DNA of 64,000 nucleotides from Escherichia coli (GTDB taxonomy: Bacteria > Pseudomonadota > Gammaproteobacteria > Enterobacterales > Enterobacteriaceae). The stretch is taken from NCBI RefSeq assembly GCF_013122565.1, contig NZ_CP053258.1, one strand, 5' to 3'. Below, piece after piece: positions 9,553 to 29,249 of the stretch. Below the pieces are notes generated by a model, which ran no database searches, was not told the origin of the DNA, and saw only the letters and a list, made by a program, of their open reading frames with translations. The translations under genes and the position numbers were made by a program. Every line of letters starts with the position of its first letter. Position 1 is the first letter of the stretch.

Positions 9553-10638
9553 ATGTTCAAGCGTCGTTATGTAACATTGCTTCCCCTTTTTGTGTTGCTT
9601 GCCGCCTGTAGCAGCAAGCCAAAACCTACTGAGACTGAAACGACCACCGGAACGCCGTCTGGCGGCTTCCTGCTTGAGCCGCAGCACAATGTGATGCAGA
9701 TGGGCGGTGACTTCGCCAATAACCCGAATGCTCAGCAGTTCATCGACAAAATGGTGAACAAACACGGTTTCGATCGTCAGCAGTTGCAGGAAATTCTCTC
9801 CCAGGCGAAACGTCTGGATTCGGTACTGCGGCTGATGGATAACCAGGCACCAACCACATCGGTGAAACCGCCATCAGGTCCGAACGGCGCATGGCTGCGT
9901 TATCGCAAAAAATTTATTACGCCGGACAACGTGCAGAACGGTGTGGTTTTCTGGAATCAGTATGAAGATGCGTTGAATCGCGCGTGGCAGGTGTATGGCG
10001 TACCGCCGGAAATTATCGTCGGGATTATCGGCGTTGAAACCCGCTGGGGGCGCGTGATGGGGAAAACTCGCATCCTCGATGCGCTGGCAACGCTGTCATT
10101 TAACTACCCACGCCGCGCGGAATATTTCTCTGGCGAGCTGGAAACCTTCCTGCTGATGGCGCGCGACGAGCAGGACGATCCGCTCAATCTGAAAGGTTCC
10201 TTTGCCGGGGCGATGGGCTACGGACAGTTTATGCCGTCGTCTTACAAACAATATGCGGTAGATTTCAGCGGCGACGGGCATATCAACCTGTGGGATCCGG
10301 TTGATGCGATCGGTAGCGTGGCGAATTATTTCAAAGCGCATGGCTGGGTGAAAGGCGATCAGGTCGCGGTAATGGCAAACGGTCAGGCTCCAGGCTTGCC
10401 AAATGGCTTCAAAACCAGGTACAGCATTTCGCAGCTTGCTGCGGCAGGTTTAACGCCACAGCAGCCGCTGGGCAACCATCAACAAGCCAGCCTGCTGCGT
10501 CTGGATGTTGGAACAGGTTACCAGTACTGGTACGGTCTGCCGAACTTCTACACCATTACCCGTTATAACCACAGCACCCATTACGCAATGGCGGTCTGGC
10601 AGTTAGGACAAGCCGTGGCGCTGGCGCGCGTGCAGTAA
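9553..10638 (+). CDS. mltB: membrane-bound lytic murein transglycosylase B (lipoprotein)
   Basis: Start moved to ATG 9553 (MFKRRYVTLLPLFVLLAACSS), which gives a lipoprotein signal with LAAC lipobox; the ORF-track start at 9448 lacks it. Confidence 0.9.
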   Translation: MFKRRYVTLLPLFVLLAACSSKPKPTETETTTGTPSGGFLLEPQHNVMQMGGDFANNPNAQQFIDKMVNKHGFDRQQLQEILSQAKRLDSVLRLMDNQAPTTSVKPPSGPNGAWLRYRKKFITPDNVQNGVVFWNQYEDALNRAWQVYGVPPEIIVGIIGVETRWGRVMGKTRILDALATLSFNYPRRAEYFSGELETFLLMARDEQDDPLNLKGSFAGAMGYGQFMPSSYKQYAVDFSGDGHINLWDPVDAIGSVANYFKAHGWVKGDQVAVMANGQAPGLPNGFKTRYSISQLAAAGLTPQQPLGNHQQASLLRLDVGTGYQYWYGLPNFYTITRYNHSTHYAMAVWQLGQAVALARVQ

Positions 10639-16297: not shown

Positions 16298-16483
16298 ATG
16301 CTGATTCTGACTCGTCGAGTTGGTGAGACCCTCATGATTGGGGATGAGGTCACCGTGACAGTTTTAGGGGTAAAGGGCAACCAGGTACGTATTGGCGTAA
16401 ATGCCCCGAAGGAAGTTTCTGTTCACCGTGAAGAGATCTACCAGCGTATCCAGGCTGAAAAATCCCAGCAGTCCAGTTACTAA
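16298..16483 (+). CDS. csrA: carbon storage regulator (RNA-binding global regulator)
   Basis: 61 aa [48 protein letters not shown], the hallmark CsrA sequence. Confidence 0.97.
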
Positions 16484-16708
16484 TCTTTCCGCGTCTCATC
16501 TTTATCGGTGAGACGCACCCTCAAAATTTCTCCTTCACTCCATTGTCTTTTCGCTTTACTCCCGTTCATTCAACTTAAGTCTCCATTTTTTTGCATTACT
16601 GCTATCTGCCAGACCTCCGTTTTTCTGTTGATAAAACACTCTTTTTGACGTTTTTACAGACTAATTGAGCGTGAAGTGTGCAAACGATAAAAGTGTGGGA
16701 AAAATTGT

Positions 16709-16736
16709 TTGACTTATAAGTCTCAGAAAGTAATAT
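16709..16736 (+). promoter_or_regulatory. candidate sigma-70 promoter of the serV-arg tRNA operon
   Basis: TTGACT, 16-bp spacer, TAATAT, then a GC-rich discriminator (gtgcgccacgc) typical of stringently controlled stable-RNA promoters; about 60 bp upstream of tRNA-Ser. Confidence 0.45.
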
Positions 16737-16798
16737 GTGCGCCACGCAGCGACGATGAGCGATAAACAAGTTCTTCGAAGCACTCGTAAGAGGCGTGT

Positions 16799-16891
16799 GG
16801 TGAGGTGGCCGAGAGGCTGAAGGCGCTCCCCTGCTAAGGGAGTATGCGGTTAAAAGCTGCATCCGGGGTTCGAATCCCCGCCTCACCGCCA
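16799..16891 (+). tRNA. serV: tRNA-Ser (anticodon GCU)
   Basis: 93-nt cloverleaf with long variable arm, anticodon loop CTGCTAA, 3' CCA encoded. Confidence 0.93.
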
Positions 16892-16894
16892 TTT

Positions 16895-16971
16895 GCATCC
16901 GTAGCTCAGCTGGATAGAGTACTCGGCTACGAACCGAGCGGTCGGAGGTTCGAATCCTCCCGGATGCACCA
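16895..16971 (+). tRNA. argV: tRNA-Arg (anticodon ACG), copy 1
   Basis: GCATCCGTAGCTCAGCTGGATAGAGTACTCGGCTACGAACCGAGCGGTCGGAGGTTCGAATCCTCCCGGATGCACCA; anticodon loop CTACGAA. Symbol assignment among the four copies is arbitrary. Confidence 0.93.
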
Positions 16972-17105
16972 TATTCTACGTACTTTCAGCGATGAAGGTA
17001 TGGAAGAGGTGGCGGTAATAACCGCAGGCACCAGGGAGGATAACGTTGCTTTAGCAACGGCCCGAAGGGCGAGCCGCAAGGCGAGTAATCCTCCCGGATG
17101 CACCA
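16972..17105 (+). repeat. about 130-nt element ending in a degenerate tRNA-Arg 3' end (copy A)
   Basis: Sequence directly after copy 1 ends in ...gagtaatCCTCCCGGATGCACCA, reproducing the tRNA-Arg acceptor/T-arm 3' half without the 5' half. Confidence 0.55.
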
Positions 17106-17169
17106 TCTCTTACTTGATACGGCTTTAGTAGCGGTATCAAAAAATCTGCAGTAAAGTAAGTTTCCCGAT

Positions 17170-17246
17170 GCATCCGTAGCTCAGCTGGATAGAGTACTCG
17201 GCTACGAACCGAGCGGTCGGAGGTTCGAATCCTCCCGGATGCACCA
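17170..17246 (+). tRNA. argY: tRNA-Arg (anticodon ACG), copy 2
   Basis: Identical 77-nt sequence to copy 1. Confidence 0.93.
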
Positions 17247-17308
17247 TCTCTTACTTGATATGGCTTTAGTAGCGGTATCAATATCAGCAGTAAAATAAAT
17301 TTTCCGAT

Positions 17309-17385
17309 GCATCCGTAGCTCAGCTGGATAGAGTACTCGGCTACGAACCGAGCGGTCGGAGGTTCGAATCCTCCCGGATGCACCA
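17309..17385 (+). tRNA. argZ: tRNA-Arg (anticodon ACG), copy 3
   Basis: Identical 77-nt sequence; the preceding spacer is near-identical to the spacer before copy 4. Confidence 0.93.
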
Positions 17386-17447
17386 TCTCTTAATTGATAT
17401 GGCTTTAGTAGCGGTATCAATATCAGCAGTAAAATAAATTTCCCGAT

Positions 17448-17524
17448 GCATCCGTAGCTCAGCTGGATAGAGTACTCGGCTACGAACCGAGCGGTCGGAG
17501 GTTCGAATCCTCCCGGATGCACCA
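17448..17524 (+). tRNA. argQ: tRNA-Arg (anticodon ACG), copy 4
   Basis: Identical 77-nt sequence. Confidence 0.93.
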
Positions 17525-17657
17525 TATTCTCCGAAATCTTCAGCAATGAAGGTATCGAAGAGGTAGCGGAATTAACCGCAGGCACCAGGGAGGATAACGT
17601 TGCGCCAGCAACGGTCCGAAGGGCGAACGCCAGTGAGTCATCCTCCCGGATGCACCA
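17525..17657 (+). repeat. about 130-nt element ending in a degenerate tRNA-Arg 3' end (copy B)
   Basis: Roughly 85% identical to copy A by eye (gaagaggtRgcgg...ccgcaggcaccagggaggataacgttgc...), ending ...gagtcaTCCTCCCGGATGCACCA. Confidence 0.55.
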
Positions 17658-17804
17658 TCTTCTCCCAAAAATTTCCTTCAAAAATATCTCATTTCTAAAT
17701 AACTACTTTATCCATTTCCTGAATTTTCTTCTCCTTCTCCATCAGCGACAAAATCAAGCAATTACGCTAAAGTAGCGTCATATTTTTCGACTTGCGAGAA
17801 GACC

Positions 17805-18371
17805 ATGTACGAGCGTTATGCAGGTTTAATTTTTGATATGGATGGCACAATCCTGGATACGGAGCCTACGCACCGTAAAGCGTGGCGCGAAGTATTAGGG
17901 CACTACGGTCTTCAGTACGATGTTCAGGCAATGATTGCGCTTAATGGCTCGCCCACCTGGCGTATTGCTCAGGCGATTATTGAGCTGAATCAGGCCGATC
18001 TCGACCCGCATGCGTTAGCGCGTGAAAAAACAGAAGCAGTAAGAAGTATGCTGCTGGATAGTGTCGAGCCGCTTCCTCTTGTTGAAGTGGTGAAAAGTTG
18101 GCATGGTCGTCGCCCAATGGCTGTAGGAACGGGGAGTGAAAGCGCCATCGCTGAGGCATTGCTGGCGCATCTGGGATTACGCCGTTATTTTGACGCTGTC
18201 GTCGCTGCTGATCACGTCAAACACCATAAACCCGCGCCAGACACATTTTTGTTGTGCGCGCAGCGTATGGGCGTGCAACCGACACAGTGTGTGGTCTTTG
18301 AAGATGCCGATTTCGGTATTCAGGCGGCCCGTGCAGCAGGCATGGACGCTGTGGATGTTCGCTTGCTGTGA
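17805..18371 (+). CDS. yqaB: HAD-superfamily sugar phosphatase
   Basis: 188 aa with the N-terminal FDMDGT HAD motif I. Confidence 0.9.
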   Translation: MYERYAGLIFDMDGTILDTEPTHRKAWREVLGHYGLQYDVQAMIALNGSPTWRIAQAIIELNQADLDPHALAREKTEAVRSMLLDSVEPLPLVEVVKSWHGRRPMAVGTGSESAIAEALLAHLGLRRYFDAVVAADHVKHHKPAPDTFLLCAQRMGVQPTQCVVFEDADFGIQAARAAGMDAVDVRLL

Positions 18372-20433: not shown

Positions 20434-20506
20434 AAAAAGGCCACTCGTGAGTGGCCAAAATTTCATCTCTGAATTCAGGGATGATGATAACAAATGCGCG
20501 TCTTTC
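20434..20506 (-). ncRNA. micA: MicA (SraD) small regulatory RNA
   Basis: Minus-strand sequence GAAAGACGCGCATTTGTTATCATCATCCCTGAATTCAGAGATGAAATTTTGGCCACTCACGAGTGGCCTTTTT matches the MicA sequence as I recall it, including the intrinsic terminator; convergent with gshA and divergent from luxS. Confidence 0.85.
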
Positions 20507-29154: not shown

Positions 29155-29249
29155 GGTTTGTAGGCATGATAAGACGCGCCAGCGTCGCATCAGGCATTGT
29201 GTACAGAGCGGCGGATGCGGCGAAAACGCCTTATCCGCCCGAATAAAAA
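29155..29249. repeat. REP/BIME cluster between proX and ygaY
   Basis: gtaggcatgataagacgcgccagcgtcgcatcaggc and gatgcggcgaaaacgccttatccg palindromic units. Confidence 0.6.

Follow-up and report, generated by a model that had tools for sequence, protein, structure and literature searches.

Two elements of an Escherichia coli tRNA-Arg(ACG) array match the tRNA-linked repeats raV and raQ

The tRNA-linked repeats (TLRs) are a family of elements that was reportedly first seen by Egan and Landy in 1978 and is said to have been catalogued by Rudd in 1999. E. coli K-12 contains 22 TLRs at ten loci, each defined by final 18–19 bp that exactly repeat the 3' end of the preceding tRNA or rRNA gene (Stenum et al., 2021, PMC8144298). 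The names of the TLRs at the arg locus, raQ, raZ, and raV, come from the strain table of the same study, and its supplement contains the entry Delta(argY/Z/Q, raQ/Z/V). The RtT RNA of the tyrT-tyrV operon is attributed to Bosl and Kersten (1991, as cited in PMC8144298). In K-12, this tyrT paralogue is annotated as the processed small RNA RttR, corresponding to nt 8–178 of the first tyrT TLR, which places its 3' end at the final base of the tail. Further members, RrA, RrB, and RrF, are TLRs downstream of 5S rRNA in rrnA, rrnB, and rrnD; these are co-transcribed and undergo processing close to the repeat, the RrB end mapping 3 nt past its repeat, which the authors credit to RNase E (Stenum et al., 2021, PMC8144298). 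The rrn members sit between two terminators and bind Hfq and CsrA, whereas the TLRs of tRNA operons are predicted not to bind CsrA. Finally, 3'ETS-leuZ (cited in PMC8144298) would resemble the arg TLRs in being a potentially functional by-product of tRNA precursor maturation, but it has no sequence relation to them and lacks both the tRNA-derived tail and the cassette described below.

The window, i.e., the whole 64,000-nt stretch of E. coli DNA analysed here, contains four tRNA-Arg(ACG) genes that are all identical to one another (ARAGORN and Rfam; sequence comparison). The array lies directly 3' of csrA, the ATG of yqaB follows at 17805, and the csrA-serV-arg-yqaB neighbourhood is kept in E. 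coli, Salmonella, and Klebsiella. The initial annotation had described these four genes together with two related elements of about 130 nt, each starting right after a complete tRNA and ending in the 3' portion of tRNA-Arg, and this description was confirmed. Elements A (134 nt) and B (133 nt) directly adjoin the ends of tRNA-Arg copies 1 and 4, respectively, both open with TATTCT straight after CCA, and their tails of 19 nt (A) and 18 nt (B) repeat the terminal bases of the tRNA that precedes them (Table 1). By global alignment they are identical at 116/135 positions (86%), or 84.5% with the tail excluded; a figure of 92% returned by an alignment tool averages the identity over columns. Six copies of the 18-mer ATCCTCCCGGATGCACCA are present in the window, four of them within the tRNAs and two as orphans at 17088–17105 and 17640–17657, and none is expected by chance. 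The kinship claimed for the spacer after element A also stands, as this 64-nt spacer is homologous to the 62-nt spacers behind tRNA copies 2 and 3 (87.5% identity). The sequence downstream of element B is unrelated to the array spacers (47–50% identity). Tandem Repeats Finder reports a 139-nt repeat of tRNA plus spacer at 17087–17525, with the tail of element A in register.

Table 1. Coordinates of the features at the tRNA-Arg locus, in positions of the window.
Feature	Position	Strand	Basis
Sigma-70-like promoter site TTGACT-16-TAATAT, candidate operon promoter upstream of serV	16709..16736	+	consensus match
tRNA-Ser(GCU), serV	16799..16891	+	ARAGORN, Rfam
tRNA-Arg(ACG) copy 1, argV position	16895..16971	+	ARAGORN, Rfam
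TLR element A, 134 nt	16972..17105	+	sequence comparison, Rfam RtT, folding
Element A, 5' hairpin H1	16979..17002	+	folding
Element A, hairpin H2, GCGGU-AAUA-ACCGC	17012..17025	+	folding
Element A, 5' arm GCACCAGGGAGGAT, pairing partner of the tail	17028..17041	+	folding
Element A, conserved cassette core (P2 17044-17059, P3 17060-17070, P4 17073-17082)	17044..17082	+	
Element A, tail, last 19 nt of tRNA-Arg	17087..17105	+	
Spacer after element A, homologous to both tRNA-tRNA spacers	17106..17169	+	
tRNA-Arg(ACG) copy 2	17170..17246	+	ARAGORN, Rfam
tRNA-Arg(ACG) copy 3	17309..17385	+	ARAGORN, Rfam
tRNA-Arg(ACG) copy 4	17448..17524	+	ARAGORN, Rfam
TLR element B, 133 nt, terminal copy	17525..17657	+	sequence comparison, Rfam RtT, folding
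Element B, 5' arm GCACCAGGGAGGAT	17582..17595	+	
Element B, cassette hairpins P2 and P3	17598..17624	+	
Element B, tail, last 18 nt of tRNA-Arg	17640..17657	+	
Intrinsic-terminator-like site just before yqaB	17764..17788	+	consensus match only

Several other predictions at the locus were discarded. An antisense ARAGORN call, 'tRNA-Arg(tcg)' at 16915–16986, and antisense Rfam matches to 'Plastid-ycf2' and 'HPnc0260' are mirror images of the real tRNAs. The open reading frames across the array are short and overlap tRNA genes or repeats, and none was judged a gene. A small protein similar to tpr was considered, but the sole ATG-initiated frame across element A is broken in B (ATG to ATC), so that the arg elements have nothing conserved to match the tpr frame of the tyr repeats.

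On sequence comparison, elements A and B are already-described TLRs and not new elements. Both lie immediately 3' of a stable-RNA gene in a tRNA operon, both contain the 29-nt internal core exactly, and both align with the Tyr-, Lys-, and Pro-linked elements as well as with the 5S-linked ones; the exact core match and the alignment settle the membership. Furthermore, the corresponding K-12 locus carries elements that are identical or nearly so, arranged alike with respect to csrA and yqaB and ending in the same 18–19-nt tails. Element A is 100% identical to K-12 raV, behind argV, and element B is 94.7% identical overall to raQ, behind argQ. However, K-12 has three arg TLRs (after argV, argZ, and argQ) and the window two (after tRNA copies 1 and 4), and element B differs from any single K-12 copy, being a mosaic with nt 1–61 identical to raZ and the remainder nearest to raQ. 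Such elements are left without annotation in RefSeq: of the matches obtained from 5426 E. coli genomes, 60 were sampled, and none of them coincided with a feature.

No tRNA cloverleaf was called in either element by ARAGORN or by the Rfam tRNA model, even at E ≤ 10. Both matched the RtT model (RF00391) at 23–35 bits, i.e., below its threshold of 45. In context, the scores are 29.2 bits for element A and 23.1 bits for element B; searched alone, element A scores 34.7 bits and is aligned to model positions 46–130 only. The arg copies of K-12 score 22.8–31 bits, versus 133–138 bits for its tyrT copies. At the gathering threshold, the Rfam scan reports only tRNAs at the locus, and the RtT relation becomes visible at relaxed E-values. 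Both elements belong with the tyrT RtT/RttR RNA as its short-form relatives. The tyrT RNA has the same cassette of hairpins P2, P3, and P4 and the same design of a closing arm plus a tail, formed by the last 19 nt of the upstream tRNA. The tyr form, 173–179 nt in length, has two more hairpins at model positions 1–45, one T-arm-like and one GAGCG, both absent from the E. coli arg form.

A scan of 298 Gb of genome sequence with a 17-base pattern yielded 120 loci. Approximately 40 of these, from unrelated phyla and with no tRNA nearby, were treated as chance pattern matches. The core GCAACGNNCCGAAGGGNGA is found exactly behind genes for tRNA-Tyr, tRNA-Lys(UUU), tRNA-Pro, tRNA-Arg(ACG), and 5S rRNA, in many Enterobacterales, Gilliamella, and Photobacterium, and a hairpin cassette of about 60 nt is common to the TLRs behind all these genes, with P2 and P3 nearly base-for-base alike across tRNA types and genera. 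All 67 scored tRNA-linked copies close with the 3' end of their own upstream tRNA (16–19 nt, and 18–19 nt in all but one), and the 5S-linked copies, judged by eye, finish in the 3' end of 5S rRNA; the latter share the cassette and a tail-complementary arm with the arg elements. The long-form TLRs consist of the 3' part of the cognate tRNA with the cassette set into the T-loop, the break falling exactly between TTCGA and ATCC. The suggestion that the elements are tRNA gene copies with replaced 5' parts is thus half correct; the E. coli arg form retains just a 14-nt arm and the tail.

The elements are predicted to be strongly structured, with minimum free energies (MFE) of −60.3 kcal/mol for A and −52.1 kcal/mol for B (z = −5.41 and −4.94 versus shuffles, respectively). 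Evidence for conservation of the structure is provided by hairpin P4, in which four of five pairs show compensatory changes (32 cells; matched by 0/500 shuffles), and this covariation collapses in slid controls. Hairpins P2 and P3 are invariant, partly as a consequence of the search pattern, and hence do not contribute covariation evidence. The closing stem follows the tRNA: in Hafnia, a G-C pair is switched to A-U, matching the tRNA of that genome. Since tail pairing by MFE was inconsistent among the long-form TLRs, duplex energies with cognate and non-cognate tails were compared. For each of the four tRNA types, the cognate tail is on average the strongest partner of the 5' part, and it comes first in 46 of 70 elements versus 25% expected. 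Automatic consensus folding of 21 arg-type elements recovered the 3' domain alone, because the 5' hairpins are out of alignment register; the latter were taken from one-by-one folding. Enterobacter, Klebsiella, and Phytobacter retain a hairpin at the H1 position, built from stems that differ in sequence.

The only sigma-70-like site in the interval 16400–18000 is the one upstream of serV, a consensus match alone for which chance predicts about an equal number, and the only terminator-like site after the array lies 3' of element B. An array devoid of internal promoter-like sites and followed by a single terminator-like site favours co-transcription. The searchable literature yielded no transcript, end-mapping, expression, or processing data specific to the arg elements, and the processing is therefore argued here by analogy. 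Of the possibilities raised by the initial annotation, the closest fit is a structured RNA that shares both transcription and processing with the tRNAs: element A is located between tRNAs of the operon, no promoter-like site intervenes, both elements fold far more stably than shuffles, and RttR provides a precedent.

Elements A and B are arg-operon TLRs of the raV/raQ type, and we consider it likely that they are co-transcribed structured spacers, excised by tRNA-processing enzymes and reshuffled by unequal recombination. Each element is composed, in order, of two 5' hairpins, the 14-nt arm GCACCAGGGAGGAT, the three-hairpin cassette, and the 18–19-nt tRNA-Arg tail; pairing of the arm with the tail restores a terminal helix similar to that of the acceptor and T-stem, leaving the ACCA end free. 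We infer that both are transcribed within the serV-arg precursor. As the 3' end of the element and its trailer copy those of the real tRNA, the same enzymes of tRNA 3' maturation should act on them, presumably by an endonucleolytic cut in the U-rich trailer past CCA and exonucleolytic trimming back to the helix. These steps would free the tRNA that lies downstream and leave, as a by-product, a discrete RNA of about 125–134 nt, of the kind documented for RttR, the tyrT paralogue. The homology of tail plus spacer to real tRNA units extends over about 80 bp, and unequal recombination would thus be expected to add, delete, and recombine TLR units.

Such recombination is supported by the mosaic make-up of element B and by fluid copy numbers and layouts. 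Among 5426 E. coli genomes, 5156 carry from one to six copies, with a median of two; the layout of the array is not the same in the window, in K-12, in a further E. coli, and in six additional genera; and TLR copies are seen both in tandem and within arrays. The terminal copies in Salmonella have either a degraded tail (GCGTCA or ACGTCA) or a lost P4. TLRs are dispensable in the laboratory, a K-12 strain deleted for all 22 of them being an entry in the strain table of Stenum et al. (2021, PMC8144298). The decay in Salmonella, the existence of genomes with one or no detectable copy, and the deletion strain together suggest that selection on individual copies is weak or absent. The physiological role of the arg copies, if any, is probably modest.

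Could the scars of mobile elements account for the same data? The initial annotation had raised relic attachment sites as a possibility. In this reading, the tRNA 3'-end repeat would be an attR-type scar of integrase insertion, the island having since been deleted. As with attL and attR of tRNA-targeting islands, the 3' portion of a tRNA gene is directly repeated here, and the repeat boundary is in the T-loop, a site that some tRNA-targeting integrases use. Yet just about 115 nt separate the repeats, and this interval holds a structured cassette and neither an island nor an integrase; no integrase is present among the annotated genes of the examined stretches of E. coli, Salmonella, and Klebsiella, the array frames are short and overlap tRNA genes or repeats, and the neighbourhood is conserved. 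The same cassette occurs behind various tRNAs and behind 5S rRNA, which has no T-loop, and the copies are found in tandem and inside arrays. Matches in phage and plasmid collections proved to be mislabelled chromosome pieces: largely Mb-sized chromosomes filed as plasmids or phages, a 14-kb circle in which an IS3 transposase adjoins the entire csrA-gshA block of the chromosome, and a contig that is unverified and of low coverage. Four matches to viral contigs include ordinary TLR arrays of the tyrT type (L003 and L004) and the Lys type (L005); the fourth, L006, showed no match on re-reading. Relic attachment sites are therefore given almost no credence. Only slightly more credible, and still very improbable, are neutral leftovers, i.e., decaying partial tRNA duplicates that are regenerated by array recombination and whose RNA is merely discarded. 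They would agree with the fluid number and position of the copies, the degraded terminal copies of Salmonella, and the 22-TLR deletion strain. Neutral relics would not, however, keep a cassette near base-for-base behind five stable-RNA genes in genera ranging from Escherichia to Gilliamella and Photobacterium, a P4 pairing held by compensatory changes, and an arm that follows the T-stem of the tRNA.

Another explanation, unlikely but less so than the preceding two, is that the excised arg TLR RNAs are regulatory sRNAs or sponges that bind Hfq, CsrA, or ProQ, or base-pair with targets, coupling a regulon to transcription of the tRNA operon. Such a role has been proposed for the rrn TLRs and demonstrated for the tRNA spacer 3'ETS-leuZ. 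Protein binding by RrA, RrB, and RrF, the position of csrA directly upstream of the array, and a 5' arm antisense to the tRNA-Arg 3' strand would be compatible with regulation, as would the high conservation of the cassette over tRNA types and genera, which suits a candidate protein-binding site. On the other hand, the probability of CsrA binding estimated by InvenireSRNA is below 0.01 for 19/19 tRNA-operon TLRs (PMC8144298), the effects of deleting or overexpressing rrn members were modest (Stenum et al., 2021, PMC8144298), copy number varies from one to six, and Salmonella copies are decaying. The P2-P3 core also recurs in Pectobacterium as a tandem repeat of 73 nt that has no tRNA in its vicinity. 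It is conceivable, albeit similarly doubtful, that the cassette P2-P3-P4 (about 60 nt) is an autonomous module, possibly once mobile or spread by RNA or recombination, that entered partial copies of at least five stable-RNA genes at a point immediately before the 3' strand of the terminal helix, which in tRNAs falls in the T-loop; it would be a putative protein-binding site, and the TLR RNAs would be effectors coupled to growth rate. The Pectobacterium repeat, the conservation of P2 and P3, and the exact T-loop break in the long forms are hints in this direction.

As named TLRs of the raV and raQ types, from a family reportedly seen in 1978 and catalogued in 1999, the two elements have small value as a discovery. 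The useful outcome is a negative one, in that they are neither att scars nor pseudogenes in need of repair. At the same time, the cassette set within a copy of the cognate RNA 3' part, the arm that follows the tRNA, the single covarying hairpin, and the rapid flux of copy number provide handles for experiments.

The two elements (A and B) belong to the serV-arg tRNA operon, which is flanked by csrA upstream and yqaB downstream, the same as the K-12 serV-argVYZQ locus. The initial annotation described the region accurately: the four tRNA-Arg(ACG) genes have the same sequence, both elements start directly after a complete tRNA, with TATTCT right behind its CCA, and both end in an orphan 3' portion of tRNA-Arg, the terminal identity being 19 nt in A and 18 nt in B. 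Of the six occurrences of the 18-mer ATCCTCCCGGATGCACCA within the 64 kb of the window (none expected by chance), four are tRNA 3' ends and two are orphan (17088–17105 and 17640–17657). A and B are 86% identical (116/135). The spacer after A indeed matches those behind tRNA copies 2 and 3 (87.5% identity), and the A tail (the last nucleotides of the element) is in register with the 139-nt tRNA-plus-spacer repeat found by Tandem Repeats Finder; the sequence 3' of B is unrelated to these spacers. Neither ARAGORN nor Rfam recognised a tRNA in A or B. An ARAGORN "tRNA-Arg(tcg)" at 16915–16986 (minus strand) and sub-threshold Rfam matches to Plastid-ycf2 and HPnc0260 on the minus strand of all four tRNA-Arg genes were rejected as mirror-image artefacts of real tRNAs on the opposite strand.

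RNA genes and parts of the two elements in the window
Feature	Position	Strand	Basis
tRNA-Ser(GCU)	16799-16891		ARAGORN + Rfam
tRNA-Arg(ACG) copy 1	16895-16971		ARAGORN + Rfam
Element A (134 nt)	16972-17105		
A 5' hairpin 1	16979-17002		predicted fold
A 5' hairpin 2	17012-17025		predicted fold
A 14-nt arm GCACCAGGGAGGAT	17028-17041		predicted fold
A hairpin P2 CGTTGC-TTTA-GCAACG	17044-17059		predicted fold
A hairpin P3 GCCC-GAA-GGGC	17060-17070		predicted fold
A hairpin P4 GCC-GCAA-GGC	17073-17082		predicted fold
A tail	17087-17105		
tRNA-Arg(ACG) copy 2	17170-17246		ARAGORN + Rfam
tRNA-Arg(ACG) copy 3	17309-17385		ARAGORN + Rfam
tRNA-Arg(ACG) copy 4	17448-17524		ARAGORN + Rfam
Element B (133 nt)	17525-17657		
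Terminator-like site	17764-17788		
MicA sRNA	20435-20506	-	ARAGORN/Rfam scans
naRNA4, REP-derived nucleoid-associated RNA	29163-29240	-	ARAGORN/Rfam scans
tRNA, CAT anticodon	51538-51613	+	ARAGORN/Rfam scans
tmRNA, tag ANDENYALAA	59381-59743	-	ARAGORN/Rfam scans

A and B are known and already have names, as members of the tRNA-linked repeats (TLRs), a family first reported in the tyrT operon in 1978 and catalogued by Rudd in 1999 (see Stenum et al., 2021; PMC8144298). In the strain table of that paper, Delta(argY/Z/Q, raQ/Z/V) is one of the deletions of a strain without any of the 22 TLRs; this entry supplies the names raV, raZ, and raQ for the arg elements and indicates that joint removal of all TLRs is feasible, i.e., that they are dispensable in the laboratory. 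K-12 has three such elements, behind argV, argZ, and argQ. A is 100% identical to the first, and B is 94.7% identical to the last; nucleotides 1–61 of B are identical to raZ, and the remainder is nearest to raQ. Hence B is a mosaic of raZ-type and raQ-like parts, which is direct evidence that TLR copies recombined with each other. Genome records leave TLRs unannotated, with the sole exception of RtT/RttR calls on tyrT-type copies; no feature was annotated beneath any of the 60 matches listed when 5426 complete E. coli genomes were searched.

At relaxed thresholds, both elements match the Rfam RtT family (RF00391) full-length, at 29.2 (A) and 23.1 bits (B) in context, below the cut-off of 45 bits. 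Searched alone, A scores 34.7 bits with the alignment confined to model positions 46–130, while in K-12 the four tyrT-locus repeats score 133–138 bits vs. 22.8–31 bits for the arg copies. From these scores and this alignment, the arg elements are short-form relatives of RtT without the 5' third of the model, and under Rfam's own cut-off they fall outside the RtT family. A tpr-like peptide was also considered and rejected, not being conserved between A and B.

Both elements fold far better than shuffled sequence (A: −60.3 kcal/mol, z −5.4; B: −52.1 kcal/mol, z −4.9) and have the same plan. The predicted helix between the arm and the tail of A has 13 bp and two single-base bulges, with ACCA left unpaired, and its dimensions match those of a tRNA acceptor stem stacked on a T stem. 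The P2-P3-P4 hairpins form a cassette common to TLRs. Scanning one genome per species for its P2-P3 core GCAACGNNCCGAAGGGNGA yielded at least 120 loci; about two-thirds of the matches listed come from Enterobacterales, Gilliamella, and Photobacterium, and the rest (about one-third), in scattered phyla with no tRNA nearby, were treated as chance. Among the genuine matches listed, the upstream gene is tRNA-Tyr (30), tRNA-Lys(UUU) (20), tRNA-Arg(ACG) (12), or tRNA-Pro (5), and the last 16–19 nt of this very tRNA close the element in 67/67 copies (18–19 nt in 66/67). Further copies are located behind 5S rRNA, with the 5S 3' end (AACTGCCAGGCAT) as their terminus.

When the sequence ahead of the cassette was locally aligned to the cognate tRNA, long-form TLRs gave the T-stem 5' strand of that tRNA with TTCGA, then the cassette, then ATCC...CCA, an order that places the cassette within the T-loop of an incomplete tRNA copy. 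In Yersinia, the arg TLR retains 35 nt matching tRNA positions 23–59. The 5S-linked copies are built in a comparable way (GAGAGTxGGAC, cassette, AACTGCCAGGCAT). In E. coli, the arg form is reduced and keeps only the arm ahead of the cassette. A terminator-like hairpin with a T-run directly after the tRNA opens TLRs of the Lys type (stretches L024, L025, L039, L036, L047), the Pro type (L037, L080, L081, L106, L117), and the Yersinia arg type (L073). Their cassette thus lies beyond an intrinsic-terminator-like start, resembling rrn operons (T1-TLR-T2), whereas the E. coli arg elements start without such a terminator. In Photobacterium pectinilyticum (L046, 148–166), a TLR-like cassette whose P2 loop is enlarged ends in AATCCCTATATCTCTGCCACA, its upstream gene being beyond the contig end; this copy shows that the family extends to Vibrionaceae. 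In Pectobacterium zantedeschiae (L043, 980–1187), a 73-nt tandem repeat (2.8 copies, 93% matches) with the P2-P3 core CAACGTTGCGCAGCAACGGCCCGAAGGGTG, also seen in L042 near 9722–9740, is situated behind a coding region with no tRNA upstream, and hence the core module exists outside stable-RNA operons too.

In an alignment of 56 distinct 3' domains from all four tRNA types, P4 has compensatory changes at four of five pairs (32 cells), with a covariation score reached by 0/500 shuffles; sliding the partners as a control reduced pairing from 94% to 23–48%. P2 and P3 never vary and hence are uninformative on covariation, their invariance being partly imposed by the search pattern. The P2 flanks (columns 2 and 23) co-vary across tRNA types, A...G (AACGTTGC..GCAACGG) vs. 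G...A (AGCGTTGC..GCAACGA); these combinations are not Watson-Crick pairs, and they could reflect a sheared G-A pair or simply mark lineages. In the Hafnia arg type, a G-C to A-U switch in the closing stem tracks a change in the T stem of its tRNA. The upstream part forms the most stable duplex, on average, with the cognate tail in all four types, and the cognate tail is best for 46 of 70 individual elements (25% expected), a preference that could be due to selection or to an origin in the T-stem strand of the tRNA itself. In Escherichia, Phytobacter, Enterobacter, and Klebsiella, both 5' hairpins are kept, built from differing stem sequences; for Brenneria and Hafnia this is not clearly so.

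The array layout differs in every genome examined: Ser-Arg-TLR-Arg-Arg-Arg-TLR in the window, Ser-Arg-TLR-Arg-Arg-TLR-Arg-TLR in K-12, Ser-Arg-Arg-Arg-TLR-Arg-TLR in another E. coli, and further variants in Enterobacter, Klebsiella, Brenneria, Phytobacter, and Hafnia. Megablast detected 1–6 copies (median 2), all chromosomal, in 5156 of 5426 complete E. coli genomes. The terminal arg TLRs of Salmonella enterica (L127, 1774–1902; L128, 1488–1624) have tails ending in GCGTCA or ACGTCA, not GCACCA, and that of serovar Senftenberg has lost P4 and has its TATTCTCC start duplicated; to judge from these changes, the terminal copies are decaying. Layouts, copy numbers, Salmonella decay, and the mosaic B fit unequal recombination, which would proceed across the ~80 bp common to "tail + spacer" and "tRNA 3' end + spacer", and point to weak selection on any single copy.

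The family assignment, the anatomy, the conserved structure, the flux in copy number, and the dispensability in the laboratory are demonstrated, whereas transcription, excision, and role of the arg elements are inferred. Since A is located between tRNA genes of one operon, with the only promoter-like site upstream of serV and the only terminator-like site after B, it must lie within the precursor that yields tRNA copies 2–4; B is probably part of the 3' trailer. In the K-12 annotation, RttR covers nt 8–178 of the first TLR at tyrT, starting 7 nt behind tyrV and stopping at the final tail base. RrB, a TLR behind 5S rRNA, has a long form that ends 3 nt beyond the repeat, and RNase E was proposed to recognise the repeated 3'-end structure (Stenum et al., 2021). 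By analogy, the U-rich trailers (UAUUCU, UCUCUUAC, UCUUCUCC) together with the arm-tail helix would direct an endonucleolytic cut after CCA, followed by trimming back to CCA. In E. coli, many tRNA precursors are cut apart by RNase E, and minihelices made of acceptor and T stem are substrates of RNase P; given this background, the helix may be cut a second time, at its 5' base, which would yield a ~79-nt RNA.

The initial annotation had offered relic att sites of integrative elements or a co-transcribed structured RNA. The former explanation fails: the array has no island, no integrase is among the annotated genes of the stretches examined from E. coli, Salmonella, and Klebsiella, gene order is conserved in these, the cassette is found behind 5S rRNA too, and the matches in phage and plasmid collections represent no genuine carriage. 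A small circular Klebsiella pneumoniae record filed as a plasmid (pVA681-14, NZ_CP093469.1, 14,283 bp; L131) carries the entire chromosomal csrA / tRNA-Arg array / yqaB / yqaA / gshA block beside an ISKpn18 transposase; it represents either a circle excised from the chromosome or an artefact of assembly. The structured-RNA alternative pointed in the right direction, as the folds beat shuffles and A is inside one tRNA operon.

Pure neutral relics are hard to square with the P4 covariation and with a cassette conserved nearly base for base between genera and between tRNA types. A role as regulatory sRNA or as sponge is possible, as rrn TLRs bind Hfq and CsrA, but tRNA-operon TLRs are predicted not to bind CsrA (Stenum et al., 2021). 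An autonomous cassette with a binding partner of its own, as the tRNA-free Pectobacterium repeat might suggest, seems improbable. Most likely, the arg elements have a modest processing or by-product role. As a finding, A and B carry little weight.
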